In this document: positions 11,935 through 24,287 of the stretch, piece after piece
Numbering within the stretch: the first letter of the stretch is position 1
How the letters are laid out: each line of letters begins with the position of its first letter
Assembly (NCBI GenBank): GCA_963796685.1
Contig: CAWCMR010000006.1
Coordinates: forward strand, 261,460 to 325,459
From: an uncultured delta proteobacterium
GTDB lineage: Bacteria > Myxococcota_A > Polyangia > Fen-1088
DNA: 64,000 nt
Direction of reading: 5' to 3'
Made by a program: the position numbers and the translations under genes
The notes under the pieces: generated by a model
Databases searched by the model: none
Seen by the model: only the letters and a program-made list of their open reading frames with translations
What the model was told of the DNA's origin: nothing

Positions 11935-12071
11935 CGGGCGCGATTTCAACCGCTGGGGTTGACGATCGAAATTTCGCGCTTACAGTGAACGGACGAATCC
12001 GTGAGGCATGGTGCCCACGGACACGAAGACCCCGCCGGGAGCTGAAGGCCTCGGCGAAAGGAGAAGAGAAG

Positions 12072-12566
12072 ATGCAAACTGGAATCGTTTCGTGGTGGCG
12101 AGCGCACCGTGGACATTGTGGCGGTGCTTCGGCATGGAGCTGCAGCCCGGGCGGCCACCGAGGTCATGATTGGCCGGGGGGCGGCGACGGCGGCGGTGGC
12201 GGCGGCGGCGATGGCGACGGGTTTGGGGGATTCGGTGTGCGTCGACCGCTGCGCTTCTTCGCCTACAAGCTGGAGCTCGACGACCGTCAAGTCGCCGAGT
12301 TGGCGAGGATTCTCGACGAGATCAAGACCGAGCGGGCCCAAGCCGAAGTGGATCGTCGACGCACGTTGTCGGCCTTCGCCGATGCGATGGGCGGGGAGAC
12401 CTTCGACCAGGCCCGGGTCAAGGAGGCCGCGGACTTGCGCGTCGCCTCCGCGGAGAGGCTGCGTGACGCGGTCGCCAAGGCGCTCGCCCGCATCCACGCC
12501 CTGCTGAGGAACGATCAGCGCGAGCGTTTCGCCTATCTGATCCGAACCGGGGTCATCACCCTGTAG
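12072..12566 (+). CDS. Spy/CpxP-like helical protein
   Basis: LELDDRQ...IHALLRNDQRE (LTxxQ-type repeats); RBS upstream. Confidence 0.6.
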   Translation: MQTGIVSWWRAHRGHCGGASAWSCSPGGHRGHDWPGGGDGGGGGGGDGDGFGGFGVRRPLRFFAYKLELDDRQVAELARILDEIKTERAQAEVDRRRTLSAFADAMGGETFDQARVKEAADLRVASAERLRDAVAKALARIHALLRNDQRERFAYLIRTGVITL

Positions 12567-12630
12567 GCGGCAGGCAAACGCCGCAGTTTCGTGGGAGGGG
12601 CGGCCAAGCCCTCCCACGAGGGAGGTTGCC

Positions 12631-13581
12631 ATGTCCATGACGACTGCAACAAGCAATGCTCGCGAGGACCGCGAGGACCGCGACTTGCTCGACGCCTACT
12701 CACGAACGGTCACCAGCGTGGCCGAGCTGGTCAGTCCGTCGGTGGTGCGAATCGAGGCTTCGGGCAGCGGTTCGGGGTTCGTGACCACCCCCGACGGTTA
12801 CTTGCTCACCAACAGCCACGTCGTCAGTGGCGAGAAGCGTATCCACGTCACCCTGCAAGACGGGCAGCGCCTGCCGGCCCAGTTGGTGGGCGACGATCCC
12901 CACACCGACCTCGCGCTCTTGCGCATCGACGCCCCAAAACTGATCGCGCTCGCCTTTGCCGATTCGTCGGCCTTGCGCGTGGGACAATTGGCCATCGCGG
13001 TCGGCAATCCCTATGGATTCGACTGCACGGTGACCGCGGGAGTGGTCAGCGCGCTCGGCCGCTCCTTGCGCACGAAGACCGGACGCCTCATCGACGACGT
13101 CATTCAAACCGATGCCGCCTTGAATCCGGGCAACTCGGGTGGTCCGCTCGTCGATTCGCAAGGGCGTGTCGTCGGCGTGAACACGGCGGTGATCCTGCCC
13201 GCCCAAGGCATTTGCTTCGCCATCGCGGCGAACACGGCCGGGTTCGTCATGGGCAAGCTGATTCACGATGGCCGCATCCGCCGATCCCACCTCGGCATCG
13301 CCGGTCAAAACGTGCCCCTGCATCGCCGCGTGGTTCGTTTTCACGGTCTGGCCAGCGAAAGCGGCATTCTCGTCGTGTCGGTAGAACCCCAAAGTCCCGC
13401 CGCGCACGCCGGCCTGCATGATGGCGACCTGATCGTTGCCTTCGGCGATCGTCCCGTGGCCAGCATCGACGATCTTCACCGCCTGCTGACCGCCGAGCGC
13501 GCCGGCGTCCCCACGACGGTAACCATCCTTCGCGACCTCGAGAAACGCATGGTCCAGGTGGAACCCCTCTTGCGCGAATAG
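12631..13581 (+). CDS. HtrA/DegP-like trypsin serine protease with PDZ domain
   Basis: TNSHV, DLALL, GNSGGPL catalytic motifs; C-terminal PDZ (SPAAHAGL..GD); GGAGG RBS. Confidence 0.93.
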   Translation: MSMTTATSNAREDREDRDLLDAYSRTVTSVAELVSPSVVRIEASGSGSGFVTTPDGYLLTNSHVVSGEKRIHVTLQDGQRLPAQLVGDDPHTDLALLRIDAPKLIALAFADSSALRVGQLAIAVGNPYGFDCTVTAGVVSALGRSLRTKTGRLIDDVIQTDAALNPGNSGGPLVDSQGRVVGVNTAVILPAQGICFAIAANTAGFVMGKLIHDGRIRRSHLGIAGQNVPLHRRVVRFHGLASESGILVVSVEPQSPAAHAGLHDGDLIVAFGDRPVASIDDLHRLLTAERAGVPTTVTILRDLEKRMVQVEPLLRE

Positions 13582-13603
13582 CGGATGGCCTGACGTAGCC
13601 CTG

Positions 13604-14614
13604 TCAGCCAGCCGTCACCGAGAAGTTGGTGACCGCGAACGTGGCGTCCGCGCCGCCGGTCGACACCAACTCGACCCCGTAGTCGATGGCTCCGAGCGTG
13701 GAGCTGGCGGGGATCCAGCCCTTGCCGATGATGCAATCGAAGAACGACAGCAGGTTCACGGTGCCCGAGGTCACGTTCGTGGTGTCGACGAAGGCGATGT
13801 AGCTGCCACTCTTGTAGACGTCGTACGTTTGCCCGTCGAAGGTGACGGTGTCTTGGCGCGAACCCGAGGGCACCTGGTGGTAATTGTCCGTCCAGATCAT
13901 CACCTCGGTGGCGCCGCTGCTGGCGACGCCGTTGAGCCCAATATCGTAGGCGAGCTCGTAGATTCCGACCTGCGGCGCGGTGTGCGCAAAGCTACTTGAA
14001 AGGGTGGTAAACGAGCTGATCGCGGGCGCGTTGTTGAAGTCCTTGTGAACGTTGGGGTAGGTCTTGACGGCTCCGTCGCCGCTGTCGTTGTTCATCGTGG
14101 CGATCACGTACCAGTTGTTGTAGTCGCAGACGTACATGGTCTGCGACACCTGGTAGCCGGCTGCGTTCCAGGTGTCCGTATCCAGGTAATAACCGCTCAG
14201 CGTGATGCCGTCCTGGGGGTTGGACGCATTCATCGGCAAGACGTGCGTAGGATTCGTGCAAGTCTGCGACACCGCCGAAGTACCGCCGGTCGAGGTCCCA
14301 GGCCCCCCAGCAGCGCCGCCAGCGCCGCCTCCCATCCCGGCGCCACCCATACCGCCACTTCCACCGGAGCTGGACACCCCAGCGCCGCCGGAAGCGGTGA
14401 CAAGGCCGCCGTCCGTCGTGGATGTCGGGTTGGAACCGCCGCAACAGCAGAGCACAGTGAGCGCCGCGAGCAGCAGCGTGGGTCCATCGGGCGGCCATCT
14501 GCGGCCGACCGTCCGCTTCAACGGCTTTGGCGGCGCTTCCGCGATGTCATTTCTCGTCGGAATGATCGTCGCCCTCCTCCTTGGAGTACCAGTTCGCGAG
14601 CTCGATCCCGCCAC
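13604..14614 (-). CDS. GH12 endoglucanase-like lipoprotein with Gly-rich linker (start uncertain)
   Basis: VKTYPNV, AYDI, EVMIW, YGVE GH12 motifs; hydrophobic segment ending CCCG followed by a Gly-rich tether. Confidence 0.75.
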   Translation of the reverse strand: MAGSSSRTGTPRRRATIIPTRNDIAEAPPKPLKRTVGRRWPPDGPTLLLAALTVLCCCGGSNPTSTTDGGLVTASGGAGVSSSGGSGGMGGAGMGGGAGGAAGGPGTSTGGTSAVSQTCTNPTHVLPMNASNPQDGITLSGYYLDTDTWNAAGYQVSQTMYVCDYNNWYVIATMNNDSGDGAVKTYPNVHKDFNNAPAISSFTTLSSSFAHTAPQVGIYELAYDIGLNGVASSGATEVMIWTDNYHQVPSGSRQDTVTFDGQTYDVYKSGSYIAFVDTTNVTSGTVNLLSFFDCIIGKGWIPASSTLGAIDYGVELVSTGGADATFAVTNFSVTAG

Positions 14615-14912
14615 GAAGGATCTCCAGAATCTCGGGGCCAGCCTCGGTTTCGCTGATTATTCCGTTGGCGATAGCGCCGGCTACAGCCAGCTCGATGGCG
14701 TCTCCGGTGTATGTGGTGAAGAGCCGGCGATTGGGGCCTTGATGGAATTCGTGGATCCGCTGGTCCAGGTCGTGGGCGGTTATCGCGCCGCTGCGCCATC
14801 GAGCGAGCTCCCCGTCGAGGGTCGTCAGCTCCCGAGAGAGTTCTCGGTCGTAGGCAATGCCCGCGAGCTCGCGGATGCGCCGTCGCCGTGATTTTGTGAG
14901 ATCTCGCCTCAT
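14547..14912 (-). CDS. Hypothetical protein, last cassette-like gene (121 aa)
   Basis: ATG preceded by GAGGAG directly after the R' box GTTCGCC (14928-14934). Confidence 0.65.
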   Translation of the reverse strand: MRRDLTKSRRRRIRELAGIAYDRELSRELTTLDGELARWRSGAITAHDLDQRIHEFHQGPNRRLFTTYTGDAIELAVAGAIANGIISETEAGPEILEILRGGIELANWYSKEEGDDHSDEK

Positions 14913-14927
14913 GCCATCTCCTCGTCC

Positions 14928-14955
14928 GGCGAACGTCCTGGCGTTCAGCAGCAAG
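14928..14955 (-). repeat. Half attC (L'/R' only)
   Basis: Minus strand GCTGAACGCCAGGAC-GTTCGCC resembles the 3' half of the other attCs (GCTGAACGGCAAAGC-GTT); no R''/L'' partner found. Confidence 0.6.
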
Positions 14956-15097
14956 GGCGGAGGTAACCACCTTCAACGGGAGCCCAAGCGTGCCATCTGG
15001 TCCCGTCCCAGAAGGGCATAAGCAAGGGCTGCCGGCCATTGAGCTGCGAAAGATCGAGATAGGGGATATCGCTCAGGCTGATCAAATGGAGAGTCAT
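14945..15097 (-). pseudogene. Truncated cassette gene (50 aa) fused to half attC
   Basis: ATG shortly after attC1 R'; MTLHLISLSDIPYLDLSQLNGRQPLLMPFWDGTRWHAWAP... ends inside the half attC. Confidence 0.5.
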
Positions 15098-15107
15098 GGC
15101 TTGGTCG

Positions 15108-15214
15108 GGCTAACGCTTTGCCGTTCAGCTGCGAGCCCGTCGCACGAACGGTTCGTTGATGTTACTCCGATTTCCCTGCGGCGGGTTCGTCAGTCTGCAA
15201 CGGCTTGGTTAGCC
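15108..15214 (-). repeat. attC site 1
   Basis: Minus strand GGCTAAC-CAAGCCGTTGCAG...GCTGAACGGCAAAGC-GTTAGCC; toxin stop TAA lies in R''. Confidence 0.92.
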
Positions 15215-15500
15215 ATCGCCAAGTTCGAGCCGACGACGCCACGCCCTCGGATTGCGGCTGCCATGAAAGCAGGCAATCACCACGACGCACTCTGGATAGA
15301 CTCGATACAGAAGCCCAAAGGGAAACCGACGAATCGGCGCGCGACGAACGTCCCGGTAGAGAATCTGGTAGGACTCGGGCAGTTCGGAGATCGCGTTTGC
15401 AGCATGGGTAGCTGCACGAAGGAACTCAGCGCCGCTCATACCAACCGTTCGCGTCAGCCAGATCGGCCTCGGCTGCTGGCCGAAGAATGACCGGCTTCAC
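15209..15500 (-). pseudogene. RelE/ParE-family toxin broken by internal deletion/frameshift
   Basis: GTG start overlapping antitoxin stop gives MKPVILRPAAEADLADANGWYE; the rest (GAEFL...RRFPFGLLYRV...IACFHGSRNP) is in another frame with several residues missing. Confidence 0.8.
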
Positions 15501-15715
15501 CGTGAAGAGCCGATGCGACGAACCGCCTCGTCCCAGGCTGTGCCAGTCGGGCCTTCACGTTCCAGATCATCGAGGCGACCGTCGAGCTCTTCCCGCTGCG
15601 CTGGGGTCAAGGGAAGCAAGCTCGCAGCGGAACCAATGCTGTCCCAGAGCCTCCCGATCAGATCCAAACGCTCATCGGTACTGAGACGATCTACATCGAT
15701 AGCTGGCATGGCCAT
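15497..15715 (-). CDS. Addiction-module antitoxin (TIGR02574-like)
   Basis: LSTDERLDLIGRLWDSI...LTPAQREELDGRL...W motif; immediately upstream of the RelE/ParE toxin. Confidence 0.85.
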   Translation of the reverse strand: MAMPAIDVDRLSTDERLDLIGRLWDSIGSAASLLPLTPAQREELDGRLDDLEREGPTGTAWDEAVRRIGSSR

Positions 15716-15769
15716 GAACGTAGTATTCCACACTGCATCTGTCCTGCCAACCTGCACGCCGTAGCGTAT

Positions 15770-15870
15770 GGCTAACGCTTTGCCGTTCAGCGGCGCGGGC
15801 GCCGCACGAGCGGTTCGTTGATGTTACTCCGATTTCCCTGCGGCGACTGCGCTGCAACGGCTTGTTCGAC
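15770..15870 (-). repeat. attC site 2
   Basis: Minus strand GTCGAAC-AAGCCGTTGCAG...GCTGAACGGCAAAGC-GTTAGCC. Confidence 0.92.
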
Positions 15871-16141
15871 GGCGAACCCTCGTCCTTGTGAGCCTTCGAG
15901 ATTCATCACTATCGCCGCCGCTGCCGGCACCATGCTTCGCCGACCTGCCGCGGTTGCCGCCGCAAGCATTGATCGCTGCCGCAAGTGGCACGAACGGCGA
16001 CGCCCAGTCGCACGCCGACCAGAGATGTCGTCCCGTCCGAGCCCTCAGATACCGTCACCTTCCAAGTAGTTTGTCCGTCGAACGCCTTGCCGTTAAGCTG
16101 CGAGCGGCCGTCCGCGGCCGATCGACAGCTTCAACGGCTTG

Positions 16142-18118
16142 GTGATGCCTGGAGGTACCCATGAAACCATAAGGTGAAAGTCCTGAAGCGGTAGAAGATC
16201 GAAGCCGCATAGCTTGGGTGGCGCCGACATGGGAAATCCTGGCGGCGAAGCCCACCGACAAAGCCCCGCATGGCGGGGCGAGCAAGGGCGCGGGCCGCAA
16301 CGACGAGTGAACGTCTGGACAAGGCCCCGAGATGAAGGAACCCCGGGTGCCGAGCTGGCCAAGTAGGGGCGAAGGCAGTAGGTGACTCCAAACGCGATCT
16401 GGGGAGGCACCGCCCGGCGGGGTAAAGGACGGCAGCACGCGCTCAAGGTCATGGGAGAAAACAGGGAAGGGCTCCTCGCCCCGTGGAGAAAGCCCACGGA
16501 AGCAAGGTAGTCGCGCGAGCCGGAAGGCGAAGTGCGGTGAAGGCGAGAGCCTGACGGATGGGTCCGTATGAGCGAGGAAGCGGGGTAACGCCCGCGGAGC
16601 AAAGGGGCCCTGCCGGAGGCAATCGGAGCAGAGAAGCGAGGCAAGAGCGGGATGACAAAGCCCACCATCAGTTTGCAAGAACTTCGAGCGAAGATAGGCC
16701 AACGGGCGAAGTCCGCCCCTGCGCATCGCTTTTGGGGATTACACGTCCACATCAAGAAACTCGAAACGCTCGAAGCGGCGTACCTGGAGGCCAAGCGCAA
16801 TGGCGGAGCCCCTGGGTCAGACGGCGAGACGTTCGAGATGATTGAGGCGCAGGGCCGAGGAGAGTTTCTCGCGAAACTCGCCGAGGAACTGCGCGCGGAC
16901 ATGTACCACCCGAGGCCGTATCGACGAAGAGAGATTCCCAAGGAGGGCGGCAAAGTCCGCGTGATTTCGATTCCTGCGATTCGAGACCGCGTGGTGCAAG
17001 GCGCCCTTCGGCTGATTGTGGAACCAATCTTCGAAGCCGACTTCTCGGACAGCTCGTATGGGGCTAGGCCGGGACGAAGCGCGCATGAGGCAAGCGAGAA
17101 AGTGCGAATGGGATTGCGCCAGGGCCGACACCGCGTGGTCGACGTCGACCTGTCCCGCTACTTCGATACGATTCGGCATGACCGAATCTTGGCGAAGGTG
17201 GCAAGACGGGTTGTCGACAGCGATGTGCTGGCCATGGTGAAGCAGTTTCTCAAGAGCACCGGCGACCGAGGCGTGCCACAAGGCTCGCCGCTGTCACCCC
17301 TTCTCGCAAACCTCGCGCTCGACGACCTGGACCACGCCCTTGACCGAGGAGGCGGCACCATCACCTATGCGCGATACCTGGACGACATGGTCGTGCTCGC
17401 GGCCGACACCTCCAAAGGGCGGCAGTGGGCAGACCGAGCGCTCGTGCGCATCCGCCAAGAGGCGGAGGCCATCGGCGTGTCGCTCAACGCAGAGAAGACC
17501 CGTCTGGTCACGATAACGGAGCCAGGGGCGAGCTTTGCGTTTCTGGGATTCGAGTTTCGTTGGGAGCGGAAGCTCGAAGACTGGAAGATGGTATCCGAGC
17601 AGAACCCCGCGACCGAAGAAGGTCATCGCGGTCCTACAGGAAGTTGGGAGAATCTTGCGCAGGAGCCGCCACTTGCCTATGCCAGGGGCGGTTGCGCAGG
17701 TGAATTCTGTCCTGCGGGGTTGGGTGAACTACTTTCGTGTCGGCAACTCGGGGACGGCGTTCGGCAAAATCAAGTACGAGGTCGAACGCAAGGTGAGGCG
17801 ACTGGCGGCCAAGAAGTGCAAGCGCAAGGGATTCGGCTGGAAGCGGTGGAGTAGCGCCGTGGTGTACGGAACGTGGGGCCTCTTTCGAGACTACCGCGTG
17901 GTGTACTGGAGCGCGAAAGCATGCCCCGGCGGAACGGACGCATAACCCCGATGGAAGACGCCTTCGCGGTGAGCCGGATGCGGGAAATCCGCCTGTCCGG
18001 TTCGATGTGGCGGGGGCCGGAGACGGAGTGATGGAACCTCTAAACGGGCACGAAGCCGGAAACGGCGGACACAGCCAAGGGGCATCCTGCACACCACCGC
18101 GCCGGTCCCCGACCCGAC
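16142..18118 (+). mobile_element. Group II intron inserted in the attC bottom strand
   Basis: 5' GTGATG, 3' ...CCCGAC; domain V GAGCCGGATGCGGGAAATCCGCCTGTCCGGTTC at 17971-18003; long DVI; internal RT ORF. Confidence 0.9.
16652..17945 (+). CDS. Group II intron reverse transcriptase/maturase, no endonuclease domain (frameshift near 17570)
   Basis: APGSDG, IPK, DRVVQ, SYGARPGRSAH, DLSRYFD, PQGSPLSP, RYLDD, FLGF; maturase LRGWVNYF in the second frame. Confidence 0.93.
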
Positions 18119-18130
18119 TTCGACAGCCTA

Positions 18131-18586
18131 CTACAGTTCCTCGGCAACACGTTTCCACCAACTGTCCCGGGTCATCCGATACTTCTCGACGCGCTCGCAG
18201 AGGTCGGCGCCAGGAGCCGTGCATACATAGTTACCCCGCTCCCAGGATGACGTCTTGGTGTAGCCCATTTCCGTCATGATGTCGAAGGCCTCACTGTACG
18301 TGAGAGCGAACGTAGCCGTTTTCGACACGTCATCGAGATTCCAAACATACGCAATCAGCAGATTAGGGAACTTCGCGTATTTCTGGTCGAGGCCAAAGCT
18401 TCGATTGCTTGCAGCCTTCATCTGTATGGGGCGCGCTCGAAATGTTGGGACACTGGAGAGCAGATCGGCGTAGGCGATGAGGTCGACGCTACGGTCTCGG
18501 AGAGGCAGGGACACCTCAAGCCCGGAACGGATCAACTCGCCGACGAGATGATTGCGTCCGAGCAGCTCAACAATCTGTGAATCCAT
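18131..18586 (-). CDS. Cassette protein, PD-(D/E)XK nuclease-like
   Basis: 151 aa; E..G....EL...G, D..VDLI, PIQMK motif pattern; AAGGAG RBS right after R'. Confidence 0.6.
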   Translation of the reverse strand: MDSQIVELLGRNHLVGELIRSGLEVSLPLRDRSVDLIAYADLLSSVPTFRARPIQMKAASNRSFGLDQKYAKFPNLLIAYVWNLDDVSKTATFALTYSEAFDIMTEMGYTKTSSWERGNYVCTAPGADLCERVEKYRMTRDSWWKRVAEEL

Positions 18587-18604
18587 GCAGATGCTCCTTG
18601 GTCT

Positions 18605-18708
18605 GTCGAACGCTTTGCCGTTCAGCAGCGGGGGTGCCGCCGAACCGGCGACCGGATTCTACACGATGCCCCTGCGGCACCACCGTCTGCTGCAACGGCT
18701 TGTTAGGC
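18605..18708 (-). repeat. attC site 4
   Basis: Minus strand GCCTAAC-AAGCCGTTGCAG...GCTGAACGGCAAAGC-GTTCGAC; upstream gene stop TAA in R''. Confidence 0.92.
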
Positions 18709-20028
18709 GCCGCCCTTCGCCTTCGCGAGCCATGACTTGTATTCTGCTCTTTGGGCCGTAGGGACGGACTGACGATCCAACAGCGCTACGAGCTCTCGAT
18801 AACGAGCTGTGCAGTTCGGATTATTGGCCATCCGTTTACCAAGAACAACGGATGTCTTGGGTGCTTCAAGCATCAAGCCGATCTCCCGGGGAGAGAAGTT
18901 CCGGATCATCTTTTCGTAAGCGGACGTTGCGCCCCGAGAGAATCCCCAAGGATTTCCCACAGCGCAAATGACGACGGCCTCGACATACTCAGGCTGAACG
19001 GTCTCTGGAAGAGCGCCTTGTCCAGCCAGCTCGGCGAGCTGGTCTGCAAATGGAGGCTCGTTATAGAAGTTGTTGAACTCGTTATGCACGGCCAGGAGGC
19101 GTTGACAGACGCGGGAAATGAGGCCATGGCGTTCCATGTCGCTTAGCAGAGCAAAGATACCCAGCTTGGTGAAGAATGTCCGCGAGGCCTTCTGCCGGTC
19201 GACCTTGCCTTCGGCGACGTATTCGTTATGTCGATTAATTAGCTCCGACTTCGTCTTGTCAGAGAAGGTTTGAGAGAAACCTTTGCAGATATCCAGGCAA
19301 TTGACTCGCGTTTCCTCTGAGGAGTTCGGATCACAGAAGACTCCGTGGAGCATCGCAAAGATGAAATCGCGTTGGGAATTATGCGTTGCGCCGAGCCGCT
19401 CGATCCACTTCGAGGTCTGGGTCACTGAGAACTTTCCCGCCTTGAGCGCAGCCAGAAATGCCTGCGTATCGACACCCTTCGGGTTCGTGCCGGAGCCTAG
19501 GGCGTATTTCACGCACCGGTTCAGGAACGCCAGAAGCTCGTGGTCATCCAAGGTTCCGGTTGGAGGATGTGCCGACGAAAAGTTGTTTCTGACCTCTCGG
19601 CACTGGTTCAGAAAGAAGTGGGCTTCCTCATCTACCAGGTTGAGACTCAGGCATAGGTCGAGCAACTCCGAATCCTTAAGATCGCCCAGGGTCTCCTCTT
19701 CGAACGGCTTGCGCGTAATCTGGGCCACGACAGAGAGCCCGAAGCCTCTTACTTTCTCGCGGAGAGCAACCACGGACGAGTTCCAAGCATAGTTTACAGC
19801 TGCGTCGAATAGACCCGCAGCGACCGCCACACACAAACGGGCATGTTGCGCCGTCAACTTGTCTTTCGGAATCCCACCAATCACGCGTGGAAGGGACTGC
19901 CAGGCATGGGCGATCTCGTCGTCCGCAGCGAGCAGCTCGCGCGGAAGCGAGAGAGCCGCAGTCAGCCTCGCGAGCAGGTCACCGCTCGATCCGGTTACAT
20001 CTGGGAGCTTGATGAGTTCCTTCTTCAT
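18703..20028 (-). CDS. Cassette protein with HEPN-like N-terminal domain
   Basis: 441 aa; helical; RNNFSSAH (R-x6-H) motif; GAGGAG RBS. Confidence 0.6.
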   Translation of the reverse strand: MKKELIKLPDVTGSSGDLLARLTAALSLPRELLAADDEIAHAWQSLPRVIGGIPKDKLTAQHARLCVAVAAGLFDAAVNYAWNSSVVALREKVRGFGLSVVAQITRKPFEEETLGDLKDSELLDLCLSLNLVDEEAHFFLNQCREVRNNFSSAHPPTGTLDDHELLAFLNRCVKYALGSGTNPKGVDTQAFLAALKAGKFSVTQTSKWIERLGATHNSQRDFIFAMLHGVFCDPNSSEETRVNCLDICKGFSQTFSDKTKSELINRHNEYVAEGKVDRQKASRTFFTKLGIFALLSDMERHGLISRVCQRLLAVHNEFNNFYNEPPFADQLAELAGQGALPETVQPEYVEAVVICAVGNPWGFSRGATSAYEKMIRNFSPREIGLMLEAPKTSVVLGKRMANNPNCTARYRELVALLDRQSVPTAQRAEYKSWLAKAKGGA

Positions 20029-20142
20029 GTGACTCCTCTCAAGTGCGCCTAAGGTCTCGCGCGAAAATAACTGATCGCATTAGTCTGATTGCGGCGTGAC
20101 TGTGTAGTTCCAGTCACCTCTGAAACGGGCGGGGCGAAGATT

Positions 20143-21554
20143 GGCTCTCCTGACATCTTCATGGAAGCGCGGGCACCTTGAAGACGGGATGAAGGACAAC
20201 GCCTGAGCAGCAGAGGAAGATGAAGCCAATGAGGGCTTGAGCGTTGTGGAAGCCATAGGCCCTGCGGGTGATGACCCTGATCTTGCCATTAAGGCCCTCG
20301 GTTCTTCCGTTATTGAGCCCTGTGGCGACAATGGCCACGATGCCGTCCAGGTATTTCTTGATGGTCGCGGCGACCTTCTTGAAGGAAGGTAGTCTGGATC
20401 GCCTGGCCCAACTGATCCATTCTTCGAGCTTCTGTTTGACGACGTTGACCTGGCGACGACCGAGGATGTCGCAGATGGCGATCTTGAGCAGGTAGCCGCG
20501 ATAGAGTCGGGCATTGGTCTTCGGGAGGGTCGAAAGCCTCTCAGACTCGGCCCTGGATAGGTTCCACGGATTCTTGAGCAGAAGGTACTTGGTCTTCTTC
20601 AGTTGCCCGCGTTCGTCGGTGTCCTCCAGGAGTCGGACCTCCGCACGCCGGAGCTCGTCGAGTGCTTCCTGCACGAGTCTCTGAACGTGGAAGCGGTCGA
20701 AGACGATCTGCGCTTGTGGCGCTCGCGAGGTGACCGCGTCGATGTAGGCCGCGGACATGTCGATGGTGACGGTCTTGAGCTTGCTGGTTCGTTCCGGGCC
20801 GAGAGCGTCGAAGAAGCAGCCGAGCGTCGCAGCGTTCTTGCCCTCGTGGGCCCAGACGACCCGCTGCGAGACGTGGTCGACAACGACGGTGACGTACTCA
20901 TGGTGCCGCCGGTACGACAACTCGTCGACGCCGATGTGTTCGAGGTCCTCGAGGAGAAGGCTAGGATTCTCGGTGCCGCGGCACCACCCGCTGGATGATG
21001 GCGCCGACGGTGCGCCACGCGATGCGCATGGTTTCGGCCACCATCGTCTGGCTTGCTTGTTGGGCCAGATAGGCCACATGGTCCTCGAAGTCACGCGTGA
21101 AGCCGACCTTCGGCTCGGCCCAAGGGACCATCTCGATGACCACGCCGCACCGAGGACAGTCAACCCTGCGCAGGGTGTAGCGCAGAAGAACCTCCATCCC
21201 GCACGCGTCCAGATGCCGCCAGTTCCGAGCCCGAGCATCGAACACGTCATGGACCCGACATCCGCAGCCTGAGCAGTAGGGAACGGTCGTCGTTGGCGCC
21301 ACGTGCACCAATATGCCAAGCAGATCGAATTCGACCGCCAGGACACGGGTATGTGGAAATTGGAGTAGGTTTCGGAATAGGGTGGTTGCGCGCATGGGCT
21401 CCTGGGCTTGTGGGTTCTAGACAAGCCACACGATACCCCAGGTGCCCGTGCGCACTTCGTCTCCACCTCACCCGAAACTCATGCCGCCCACATCTCCGTC
21501 GACGACGTGCGTCGCACCTACGAGATCTCCCCTTACGAAGATGTCAGGAGAGCC
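20143..21554 (-). mobile_element. ISL3-family insertion sequence (1412 bp)
   Basis: Perfect 18-bp IR GGCTCTCCTGACATCTTC; 8-bp duplication CGAAGATT at 20135-42 and 21555-62. Confidence 0.95.
20159..21395 (-). CDS. ISL3 transposase (frameshift near 20970)
   Basis: Zn finger CSGC...CPRC, VPWA; IGVDE, IDMS, DRFH, EGLNGKIRVITRRAYGF. Confidence 0.9.
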
Positions 21555-22797
21555 CGAAGATTGACGGCTTCCATCTCCTCGTGTGCGACCTTGATTCCCT
21601 TTTTGTACGAGTTCCGGTCGGCGGCGGCGCGGATGTGGAGGCCCCGCTTTGTCGTTGTGGCTCCAATCAGATTGACGACGGTTTCGAGAGTCTCAAGCGG
21701 CCTCCCCCTCCAGTTCGCGGTGATGTGGCAGAACATCCGGTGTTCGATCTTGTTCCACTTGCTCGTCCCAGGCGGGTAGTGCGCTACTTGTATCCGCAAT
21801 CCGCTCTCGTCCGCGAATTCCTGAAGTTCTGTCTTCCAAAGACGCACTCGTGCCCCGTTGCTGCCACCTCCGTCCGCAGTGATGAGCAGCTCCTCCGCTT
21901 CCGGATACACTGCCTTGCCCATCCTCTTCCACCAACGACGGATGGTTTCCACTGCAAACTCGGCGGTGTCGTGGTCAATCCCCACGCTCACCCAACCCTC
22001 GTTCCTTGCGAGGTCGTACACGCCATACGGAATCGCCTTGCCGAGTTCCTTGTCAATGAAGTCATGAACCCGGACGGGAACCGGCGAACCCTTCGGCTCC
22101 CATTCGCGGCCTCCGTTCTTGAAATCGCCCAGGTTCTCCTTCTTTTTGGTGTCGACAGAGATTACAGGCAGCCCCTTCGACTGGAACTCCTTCGCCCGGC
22201 GGTTGATGTACTCGAACTGGGCATCTCGGTCTGGATCCTGCTTGCCCTCTCTGGTCTTGTGGTTTGCCTGCAGACTGTAGTCCAGATCCACCAGTAGCTC
22301 TCGCACCTTGGTTGCGCTGACCGGGTGCCCCTGCGCTGTCAGTTCTTCAGCGAGGCGCCGCGTGCCTTTGCTTGTCCAACGAAGCGGCGATTCCGGATCT
22401 CCTCGTGTAGCGGGGTCGATCAGACGCTCAAGGGCTTTGACCAGTTCTGGGTCCTGATCCTCAATGCGTTTGCGCCCAGCACCGGGGCGGCGCACCCTCT
22501 GTTCGCATGGTGCCGCCAATGGCGGCGTCTCCCGCTGCACCTGCAAATCTCTTTTCCCTGCAACGATTCTCTTGTGGCGCAGGCCGGTCGCGCGAGTGAC
22601 GATGGCGACGCCGCCGCGACCCAGTGATTCTGCTTCCGCTGCGGCCCACAGTCGAATCTGGCGCTCATTCAAAATGGGCGTCAGATCACAAAAGAGCTTT
22701 CGAACCCGTTCCACTTCGTCCATATTGCGACACTCTTCCCTTTGAGTGCACAATATACGCAATTGTCCCTATATGCGCTCCTTTATTTACGCGCGAG

Positions 22798-22965
22798 ACC
22801 TAACGCCCTGCCGTTCAGCGGCGAGGGCCGTAGGTGAAGGTCGATAGTAGCACTGCCGGGGCCGCGCGGCGGCCTTCCGATCATCAGATGAGCCGCGCGG
22901 CCCCGGCTCGTTGACCGTCGACCGAGAGTTGACAGGCCCTCGTCCGCTGCAACGGCATGTTCGAC
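22798..22965 (-). repeat. attC site 5 (168 bp), R' partly supplied by the IS end
   Basis: Minus strand GTCGAAC-ATGCCGTTGCAG...GCTGAACGGCAGGGC-GTTAGGT; internal GCCGGGGCCGCGCGGC inverted repeat. Confidence 0.88.
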
Positions 22966-23208
22966 AGCCAGGCCACCGACCTTCTCCAATTCCACTTCCA
23001 AACCCTTGACGAAATCGGTCCTCCTCGGCGCCAAGCTCTCGACTTAAGGCTCGTCGCCCACCACGAGGCTCACGACGCTGGTCCCGATCCAACCTTCAAA
23101 ATGGCACCAGTCCTGCCCGTGAGATCGGTCTTGCTGCTTCGATGATCGCGGGCCGCGCCCCATCATTGACCTACCCGCTTCCGGCGACTTCTTCCTCTGC
23201 GGCGGTCT

Positions 23209-23246
23209 GTCGAACTACCTATTAGCATGCGAAGAATAACATTAGC
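23209..23246 (-). other. Putative attI site
   Basis: Minus strand GCTAATGTTATTCTTCGCA-TGCTAAT-AGGTA-GTTCGAC: R box, 5-nt spacer, degenerate L box, AT-rich, no attC hairpin. Confidence 0.65.
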
Positions 23247-23501
23247 GCAGCGGCGGAAGGTGGGGTTTTCGGGCGGGTCGGGGGTTCGAATCCCTGCGAT
23301 TTCGCGTGGTTGGCGGTCGCGCTTGGCGCCTTGGGCGCTCGTGGCCGCTTCGTAAGCAGGATTCCGTCCGCGCGCGGGCGCTGCCAATTGGTGGTCTAGC
23401 GGTCGAGTGGGCTGCGTAGGCCAAGGCCGGTGACCAGGCGCGCGTCGGCCGATAGGCCCGCGTCCGCGAAGGTGGCGCAGGCCGCAAGGGCTTTCGGTGC
23501 T

Positions 23502-24287
23502 CTACACCACGATCCGGCGCCGCAGCCTGCGCACGGCGAAGGCGCCCGCCACCAGGGTCGTGAGGACCAGGAAGGCGAAGTCGGCGGCCAACATGGGCGA
23601 GAAGTGGGAGAGGGCGAGCGAGCGGGCCAGTCGGACGGCGTGGGTCAGGGGCAGAATTTCGGCCACTGGACGAAGCGCGCGCGGCAGGCTGGACAAGGGA
23701 AAGATGGTTCCGGAAAAGAAGAACATCGGCGACAGGAAGCCGGTGAAGTAGAAATTGAAGTGGTTGATGTTGCGGACGAACGAGGCCACCAGCAGCGAGA
23801 TCGCGCCGAACATGGTGCCGGTCAGAAATCCGATGGGCACGGCGAGCACGCCCATGGGCATGGGAATGGCACCGAAGAGGGACATGACCAGCACGACACA
23901 GGCGCTGAAGAACAGGCCTTTGCTGCCCGCCCACAGGATTTCGCCCACGAAGAGATCGTTGACGGTGACCGGCGCCGCGACCATCCCGTCGTAGGCCTTC
24001 TGGAATTCCAGCCGCACGAAGGTGCCGAAGGTGCACTCGTAGGACGACGTGAACATGGCCGAGGTCACGGGCAGCGCGGTGGCGAGAAAGACGAGATAGG
24101 GGATGCTGTCCATGGCCGCGATGTACCGGCCGAGGCCGAGCCCGATGCCCACCAGGAAGATCACCGGTTCGAGAAAGGGCGGCAGCCCGTTGCTGACCAG
24201 GTTGCGCGTGTACACGCGCATGTGGCGGTACCAGACGCTGTGCAGGCGCCAGGCGAGAGCCGGCGGATGAATGTCACTGGCGGGCAT
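23502..24287 (-). CDS. ABC-2 exporter permease (NodJ-like)
   Basis: Hydrophobic; PMFFFSGTIFP and PLTHAV motifs. Confidence 0.9.
   Translation of the reverse strand: MPASDIHPPALAWRLHSVWYRHMRVYTRNLVSNGLPPFLEPVIFLVGIGLGLGRYIAAMDSIPYLVFLATALPVTSAMFTSSYECTFGTFVRLEFQKAYDGMVAAPVTVNDLFVGEILWAGSKGLFFSACVVLVMSLFGAIPMPMGVLAVPIGFLTGTMFGAISLLVASFVRNINHFNFYFTGFLSPMFFFSGTIFPLSSLPRALRPVAEILPLTHAVRLARSLALSHFSPMLAADFAFLVLTTLVAGAFAVRRLRRRIVV

Follow-up and report, generated by a model that had tools for sequence, protein, structure and literature searches.

Class 1 integrons with a truncated intI1 gene keep their attI site and their cassettes, which can then be mobilized only in trans. They are clinical elements borne by plasmids or transposons, with intI1 divergent from the cassettes and usually cut by an insertion sequence (IS). 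By the definitions of IntegronFinder, a locus that has two or more attC sites sharing a strand but lacks a nearby intI is a CALIN, an attC-site cluster with no integron-integrase. The locus described here is such a CALIN. It is an integron-type gene-cassette array on the minus strand, running from position 23500 down to 14480 of the window, i.e. the whole 64,000-nt stretch of DNA analysed (positions 261,460 to 325,459 of contig CAWCMR010000006.1, assembly GCA_963796685.1, from an uncultured delta proteobacterium; Myxococcota_A, Polyangia, Fen-1088). The array is chromosomal, and its source genome, named G000, is a metagenome-assembled genome (MAG) of a soil bacterium (7.3 Mb, 26 contigs, 6.5% contamination). 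Sequence comparisons indicate that the locus is very probably a chromosomal integron whose intI gene was deleted down to its last 11 codons, leaving ΔintI, a spacer of ~180 bp, attI and seven cassettes. That an attI-like site still heads this integrase-less array had been proposed in an initial annotation made from the letters alone, and was borne out by matches to an attC model, by homology of the attI, and by the lack of any match to the integrase profile TIGR02249 within ~40 kb of the array. Compared with a complete integron, the array has an attI, recognized by homology and position, and attC sites that fold as hairpins, but no adjacent intI.

As an origin of CALINs, the pertinent part of Cury et al. 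(2016, PMC4889954) names the loss of intI, and considers that the cassettes are perhaps mobilized by integrases encoded elsewhere; both points recur in the part of Ghaly et al. (2021, PMC8618304) devoted to the subject. According to the same part of PMC4889954, half of the described CALINs lie in replicons that encode an IntI, and intI pseudogenes were found near just 15 of 279 CALINs, at a required profile coverage of 50%, a threshold because of which an 11-codon remnant would fail the screen. The survey left out attI (PMC4889954), this site being unknown for most integrons. For nearly every chromosomal integron the attI has yet to be identified, and a CALIN is therefore commonly regarded as a nameless set of attC sites whose origin is uncertain. 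The array of the window differs from the published CALINs in having an attI that is both identifiable and conserved, together with the 11-codon intI remnant; its origin can be read directly from the intI stump, the recognizable attI and a sister genome that carries a complete element at the same locus. As a ΔintI relic the locus is of a known kind. Particular to it are the nameable attI, the tiny stump, the complete counterpart at the same locus and the multi-copy family of heads to which it belongs. Among the titles listed for integrons and attC sites of Myxococcota, none concerns such platforms, the search for attI in CALINs having been limited.

The array resembles a sedentary chromosomal integron in several respects: it is chromosomal, it occupies a locus common to a sister species, its distal cassettes are shared while the proximal ones vary, its attC sites are homogeneous within the genome, and it contains a toxin-antitoxin cassette along with cassettes mostly of unknown function. 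Unlike such an integron it has no integrase and just seven cassettes, and the genome harbours several platforms, not one. It also differs from class 1 integrons with a truncated intI1, since the intI of the window was co-oriented with the cassettes and appears to have been shortened from the 5′ end inwards through illegitimate deletion.

The attI site and the attC sites of the array

The site at the head of the array (23209–23260, minus strand; core 23209–23246) can be taken as a real attI by homology and position. The 38-nt core corresponds exactly to the stretch conserved at intI-adjacent sites. It contains two direct GTT boxes, GTTATTC (23240–23234) and GTTCGAC (23215–23209), and the crossover falls between G23215 and T23214, cassette 1 beginning at G|TT. 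Homologous sites are present in G000 behind the intact intI genes of contigs C9 and C22, and behind a truncated intI at C9:115368; the window sequence GTTATTCTTCGCATGCTAATAGGTA|GTTCGAC resembles GTTATTCCTCGCGGGCTAAGAGATA|GTTCGAC behind the C9 intI and …GCAGGCTAATAGTAA|GTTCGAC behind the C22 intI. The C9 and C22 sites lie 170–210 bp past the intI stop codon, exactly where the first cassette starts, a geometry that the window keeps minus the gene. An alignment of 224 nt further links the lead region to this truncated-intI locus (C9:115355–115563; E 1.4e-8). A fuzzy search of the 7.3 Mb with the 28-mer at 23213–23240 found seven places. Four other than the window copy have 3–5 mismatches, when ~0.005 would be expected by chance if base frequencies were uniform. 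Of the four, one is found behind intI (C9:33338) and another behind the truncated intI (C9:115368). Copies with eight mismatches head the C22 integron and an intI-less array on C8; these count only by their position, because ~4–5 chance matches are expected at eight mismatches.

A different origin for this lead site would be a degenerate or truncated attC, the array having been split from a larger integron by rearrangement. Rearrangement is one of the routes to CALINs listed in the part of Cury et al. (2016, PMC4889954) cited above, and the genome is rich in arrays and IS. The region 23205–23330, however, showed no attC-like fold (z +0.34; 126 of 200 shuffled sequences folded as well) and no match to the attC covariance model. 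The lead site matches attI sites adjacent to intI, not the 3′ halves of attC sites, and an intI 3′ end is present at the normal distance upstream. This origin is already contradicted by these results and is extremely improbable. The initial annotation, which called the site attI-like, had itself pointed to an attC fold in this region as the finding that would undo its proposal; the test was negative and the site is better described as an attI.

Five attC sites were detected on the minus strand by a covariance model trained on four sites of the window: attC1 (22797–22967; 87.9 bits), which is of a long, 171-nt type; attC2 (18604–18710; 106.2 bits); attC3 (16076–16149; 46.3 bits), which an intron splits into 18119–18126 and 16076–16141; attC4 (15769–15872; 111.9 bits); and attC5 (15107–15215; 115.6 bits). 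As single-stranded DNA, their bottom strands form imperfect hairpins, with z scores of −8.5 (more precisely −8.47), −4.0, −5.9, −2.2 and −4.9 relative to shuffled controls. Two half sites on the same strand were also found. An orphan attC 5′ half (14481–14536; 10.9 bits, E 0.83), whose 3′ partner is absent, runs into the downstream gene, while a 3′ half at about 14925–14960, without a 5′ partner, was found by motif search only and is missed by the covariance model. Neither half forms a hairpin (z −0.5 for the 3′ half, +0.5 for the 5′ half). There are seven cassettes, five intact and two truncated.

In all five intact cassettes, the leading box read off the sequence is complementary at nine of nine positions to the R″ box of the same cassette. 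The initial annotation listed five such pairs, all of them present as written: GTTCGACAG/CTGTCGAAC in cassettes 1 and 3, (G)TTAGGCGC/GCGCCTAAC, GTTCGACGG with the R″ CCGTCGAAC in cassette 4, and GTTAGCCAT/ATGGCTAAC. The second pair on that list works because removal of the two IS now present in the array restores GTTAGGCGC. Cassettes 6 and 7 lack an intact leading-box/R″ partner. On sequence grounds, this complementarity is the mark expected of cassettes integrated at G|TT. Circular cassettes would have been inserted by attI × attC recombination at G|TT, because of which the first bases of each would be complementary to its own R″.

The intI remnant and the same locus in related genomes

The minus strand 184 bp upstream of the crossover reads …GGC CTT GGC CTA CGC AGC CCA CTC GAC CGC TAG, which translates to GLGLRSPLDR*. 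This stretch (23429–23396) corresponds to the last 11 codons of intI (GLGLRSPLDR plus one more) and the TAG stop, at the normal distance from attI. The IntI proteins of the genome end in …GGCGVRSPLDR, …GACGVRSPLDR and …GPGGVRSPLDR, and the remnant aligns with the 3′ ends of four intI genes. In the sister genome G002, of the same genus, contig C1 is 93.8% identical to window positions 23429–23205 (225 nt); there more of intI remains (HVLNRGGLGVRSPLDR*), next to unrelated DNA. Contig C9 of G002 is 95.9% identical to the window over 171 nt; in it, the same spacer and attI follow a degraded pseudo-intI. Upstream of the remnant, the chromosomal flank outside the integron begins with a gene for an ABC-2 type permease (23502–24287, minus strand; PF01061, E 1.5e-17). 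The two are separated by a ~63-bp scrap (23430–23493, minus strand) identified by nucleotide alignment, with 80% identity over 85 nt to C25:376553–376637 of G000 (E 2.6e-13), an internal part of a PBP-like gene. Microhomology is present at the junction (CGGCCTTGGC versus CGCCTTCGGC). Homology to G002 on the ABC side stops at 23493, inside the G002 terminator hairpin, and the scrap adjoins the broken ABC terminator.

To judge from these alignments, intI has been eroded down to 11 codons and its loss was not clean. The initial annotation had seen an intI-less gap before the permease. There is indeed no intI, and the permease gene ends at 23502, but the gap contains the 11-codon remnant and the 63-bp scrap; their persistence contradicts the clean loss of intI that it offered as one possibility.

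In G002, the ABC genes are 94.5% identical to those of the window up to position 23493, and window positions 11952–15866, which cover cassettes 5–7, are 97.3% identical. The order at the G002 locus is ABC permease, terminator, a complete intI (364 aa; TIGR02249, 451.6 bits, cut-off 265), its own attI (…CATAATACTA|GTTAGCC), nine attC sites and a glycoside hydrolase family 12 (GH12) gene. Both genomes have the toxin-antitoxin cassette, the truncated one, the last one and the orphan half attC, whereas the cassettes nearer attI all differ.

Several observations weigh against the proposal that the window integron lost its intI by deletion. A tblastn search of the window with IntI gave no match at E ≤ 1e-3; because the remnant is too short for such a search, its identification rests on the nucleotide alignments. 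Further, the window head (remnant, spacer and attI) and the head that G002 has at this locus are not orthologous; the closest relatives of the former lie on other G002 contigs (C1, C23, C8, C21 and C9). A simple in-place deletion therefore cannot explain the locus, and the comparison indicates that the head was replaced in one of the two lineages, that of the window or that of G002. In addition, a promoter scan of 22700–23600, limited to the sigma-70 consensus, found no sites, leaving the expression of the array unexplained. Finally, the junction at 23493 was not bridged by any contig of the public read runs, the read evidence consisting of Logan contigs of the four best-matching runs (shares of words 0.32–0.41).

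The last of these observations also bears on whether a chimeric join in the MAG removed intI, as might happen in an assembly with the contig number and contamination given above and with many repeats (attC sites, IS copies 98–100% identical, introns). Yet a 260-nt contig from a public run, which may derive from the same sample as the assembly, covers 23219–23478 with one difference and bridges attI, remnant and scrap. Similar truncated heads with different junctions occur in other assemblies of the genus, and both flanks of the array are collinear with G002. An artefact of this kind is very improbable. The attC/attI joints in the Logan contigs had 20–28 nt on the shorter side and lay in repeats, and were thus not usable; they speak neither for nor against excision of cassettes.

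The ABC genes are not adjacent to any array in genomes G001 and G010. The GH12 gene, which forms the downstream chromosomal flank (13604–14614, minus strand; PF01670, E 6.1e-16; lipoprotein-like leader), is 96–97% conserved in G001 and G002. In G001 this flank is conserved up to window position 14527, where a vestigial short cassette follows. At this G001 locus (C7; L016 1900–2250), the GH12 flank is succeeded by the orphan attC half also seen in the window, by a single cassette of very small size and by an incomplete attC; it looks like the vestige of the array, the ABC genes being on another contig.

Integrase genes and attI heads across the genus

Three intI genes of G000 scored above the TIGR02249 cut-off (474, 462 and 410 bits), and a C-terminal fragment was detected as well. 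Each of the three genes has same-strand attC sites downstream, the co-orientation of intI and cassettes being an arrangement known from the literature. The whole genome contains at least 71 attC sites at E ≤ 0.01 (150 of 5716 first-look candidates were scored), and comprises, besides three complete integrons, ten or more other attC clusters. Service of the window array in trans, one of the readings of the initial annotation, is plausible in view of these three intact IntI. If intI was lost as proposed, the array would now be a passive store, with attC sites, and probably an attI, still usable by these three enzymes. It would also be decaying: attC sites would have been hit by two IS and a group II intron, and there are also two truncated cassettes and a broken toxin gene.

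A second integrase-less array in G000 (C8:659656–672377) has nine attC sites; the attI at its head barely differs from the C22 one, and the final bases of intI (…CTCTCGACCGCTGA) persist. Three attC sites at C13:46573–48379 are preceded by a 157-nt copy (79.6% identity) of the window remnant and spacer without attI, the similarity ending ~75 nt before the crossover. Solo copies of the attI portion of the head, with no attC nearby and nothing IntI-like upstream, were seen at C14:150426–150501 (~95 bp behind a P-type ATPase gene), C25:48655–48696 and C5:417587–417641.

When positions 23200–23440 were used as a query against 13 genomes of the genus, 30 matches were found in nine of them, eight in G002 alone; intI genes above the cut-off were present in 11 of the 13, with up to three per genome. 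This search is biased to intact heads. Nineteen heads were aligned and conservation was measured on 15, six of which come from one genome and closely resemble one another; left out of the measurement were the C9 pair of G000, with its different spacer, and the partial heads C14 and G012:C3. Two blocks are conserved in the 15 heads: block 1 (23370–23341, minus strand; column identity 0.85–0.97) and the attI (23260–23215; 0.83–0.97), the remainder being at 0.5–0.8. After GGTAGTT every head diverges completely, the 15 heads having 15 different first cassettes. In many heads block 1 makes up a single unit of a direct repeat of ~20 nt in tandem (GGAATCCTGCTTACGAAGCG-like), with ~10 nt between its two units; the first unit is degenerate in the window, and the repeat may be a protein-binding site. 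The spacer also contains a motif resembling a tRNA T-arm (GGGATTCGAACCCCC, 23293–23279), but ARAGORN found no tRNA in the window and this stretch, at 0.65, ranks with the least conserved of the head, so it was put down to chance.

A tblastn search with IntI at 23 of these loci gave a full-length match in two (G007:C11 and G000:C9), a near-full one with an internal stop in another (G002:C21), and C-terminal pieces of 123, about 105, 69 and 18 residues in four. The remaining 16 had no match at E ≤ 1e-3, although shorter remnants are visible by eye in three of them (the window, G002:C8 and G002:C23). This graded series fits the repeated erosion of redundant integrase genes. At G002:C21, whose own intI has an internal TGA, a second tyrosine-recombinase-like frame (L039 2176–2964; 33% identity to IntI, TIGR02249 positions 5–176) lies directly behind the attI of the head. 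The recurrence of an attI head in nine of 13 genomes of a genus, with most copies devoid of intI, is new.

These findings raise the possibility that the locus is a maintained satellite platform, its head (block 1 plus attI) being under selection without an integrase in cis and receiving cassettes in trans through the IntI of intact integrons in the genome, so that a single set of integrases would supply many landing pads. The number and spread of the heads would agree with this, as would the conservation of the two blocks on either side of a spacer at 0.5–0.7, the different cassette after GGTAGTT in every copy, and the fact that, in the DNA examined, same-strand attC sites follow ten heads that have no complete intI. 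Of the 23 loci, only two have a full IntI-like frame upstream, and 12 have none at E ≤ 1e-3 but for short remnants. Moreover, the truncation points differ among the window and G002 contigs C1, C8 and C23, which suggests repeated, independent loss of intI. Against it, the conservation could predate the loss of intI in each copy, and the close copies from one genome make up six of the 15 heads. A search with a head as query also misses heads that were deleted, and partial heads do exist (C13 without attI; C14, C25 and C5 without block 1 or attC). None of the array's cassettes has a second copy elsewhere in the genome of the kind that recent traffic could generate, and the IS, the intron, the truncations and the broken toxin all speak of decay. 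A maintained satellite is therefore a doubtful reading, clearly less probable than a relic whose intI was deleted. The clustering of truncation points was considered as a strong argument for selection and rejected, since heads lost by deletion escape the query and the clustering may reflect ascertainment.

A wider scheme can be put forward only tentatively, as improbable on balance: that the genus runs few integrases and many platforms, with conserved heads of ~230 bp (repeat block plus attI), up to eight per genome, mostly devoid of an integrase gene and each leading its own cassette array, kept by selection as landing pads and served in trans by two or three intact IntI. Were this the case, integrase genes would be redundant and would be eroding repeatedly from their 5′ side. 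Many integrase-less attI heads in a single soil genus make it testable whether CALINs are dead relics or a working, genome-wide cassette network.

Cassette contents and inserted elements

Cassette 1 (22804–23214, minus strand), which ends in attC1, has no convincing open reading frame (ORF). A homologue with 74% identity over 353 nt, attC included, lies inside an array of another species (G010:C18; L048 587–938). This homologue, noted for window positions 22969–23121, has a short tandem duplication, and no long ORF is seen to be shared by the two; a small protein or an RNA may be what the cassette encodes.

The gene of cassette 2 (18703–20028, minus strand), followed by attC2, encodes a protein of 441 aa with no match in Pfam, NCBIfam or PADLOC. 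Its AlphaFold2 (AF2) model is all-helical (pLDDT 88) and has an N-terminal HEPN-like domain; 483 relatives were found. VIA-align superposed residues 54–183 on HEPN structure 2hsb (Z 10.6, root mean square deviation 3.1 over 111 residues), a score that helical models often reach, and gave Z 7.9–9.2 with other HEPN chains (sacsin, the C-terminal domain of AbiA, SO_3166 and others), to which the warning of the tool on helical models also applies. A Foldseek search of the PDB with the model returned nothing at E ≤ 0.001, and the HEPN lead comes from VIA-align alone. The HEPN motif is a conserved Rx4-6H in a four-helix fold; R147 and H154, separated by six residues, do not vary among 24 sequences.

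For the 151-aa protein of cassette 3 (18131–18586, minus strand), which has 313 relatives, the AF2 model (pLDDT 92.8) matched eight chains in Foldseek at E ≤ 0.001, with SPARDA nuclease chains at E 2e-4, and further matched Hjc, PvuII and I-Ssp6803I, with TM-scores of 0.4–0.5. D35, Q55 and K57 are invariant in 24 sequences, and the model indicates a PD-(D/E)xK nuclease fold. Both proteins fall in unnamed clusters of the ESM Atlas, where the only leads are PDDEXK_5, assigned to 20% of the members of one cluster, and AF_1680, assigned to 10% of those of another. The label ‘nuclease-like’ of the initial annotation holds at the level of the fold, and ‘HEPN-like’ probably does too.

Cassette 4 (15776–16082, minus strand), which ends in attC4, has no ORF. 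Cassette 5 (15114–15775, minus strand), which ends in attC5, carries a type II toxin-antitoxin pair. The antitoxin gene (15497–15757) is intact (PF09720, E 4.9e-11; TIGR02574, 53.8 bits, cut-off 31.9). The ParE-like toxin (about 15209–15508; PF05016, 20.3 bits, below the cut-off) is split over two frames by a deletion of 17 bp relative to G002, where the toxin is an intact ORF of 102 aa; the pair is thus not intact as an operon. A contig in run X1 has 17 extra letters at 15432. The truncated cassette 6 (14934–15113, minus strand) holds a 50-aa ORF remnant and an attC 3′ half alone (z −0.52), and cassette 7 (14481–14933, minus strand) a 121-aa gene (14547–14912) with no Pfam match, followed by the orphan attC 5′ half.

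PADLOC assigned none of the seven cassette ORFs to a defence family; only the reverse transcriptase (RT) of the intron matched RT models. The toxin-antitoxin pair, with its broken toxin, is the only classical conflict module of the array, and these results lend no support to the suggestion in the initial annotation that the array probably acts as a defence island. According to Darracq et al. (bioRxiv 10.1101/2024.07.02.601686), the cassettes of chromosomal integrons often encode defence systems, and a defence role is by this analogy a reasonable but weak reading of the array. The HEPN-like and PD-(D/E)xK proteins are candidates for conflict systems, each belonging to a large unannotated family.

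Nested IS elements, a group II intron, the frameshifted toxin and the intI remnant are features beyond those of the initial annotation. An ISAzo13-family IS (20053–22800, minus strand; transposase gene 21533–22762) lies in the R′ box of attC1, directly behind GTTA; it is flanked by TTA and has inverted repeats GGTCTCGCGCG. Nested in it is an ISL3-family IS (20143–21554, minus strand) with an 8-bp duplication, AATCTTCG; both elements are carried by cassette 2. The IS profiles scored 570.7 bits (NCBIfam NF033519, ISAzo13) and 234.9 bits (NF033550), and excision of both elements in silico restores GTTAGGCGC. In all four public runs, contigs join 20134 to 21555, which corresponds to ISAzo13 without ISL3; this is the only solid alternative joint. 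A second ISAzo13 copy in G000 (C10:8338–9699) abuts an attC (C10:8298–8371) in the same position and orientation. The repeated pairing of ISAzo13 with attC suggests a target preference or the duplication of an attC-IS unit.

The initial annotation had described two ORF-less cassettes. Cassettes 1 and 4 do lack a convincing ORF, but the seemingly empty stretch of ~2 kb between the nuclease cassette and attC3 is a group II intron (16142–18118, plus strand; RT ORF 16652–17854). It interrupts the attC3 bottom strand between …GTCGAA and CAAGCC… and runs opposite to the cassettes, and joining 18119–18126 to 16141 onward restores the attC consensus. The ribozyme matched Rfam RF02003 (104.4 bits, gathering score 49) and, just under the gathering score of 40, RF00029 (38.9 bits); the RT matched RVT_1 (E 3.6e-34). 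In the part of PMC3001079 that deals with them, group IIC-attC introns are described as inserting into the attC bottom strand, antisense to cassette genes. The window intron shares this site and orientation, along with ribozyme domains and an RT; it differs in that its RT score (275.5 bits) is under the TIGR04416 cut-off of 300, and its type is assigned by site and domains. Copies 97–98% identical to this intron are present in other arrays of G000 (e.g. C8:662629–664567), and at least six in G001.

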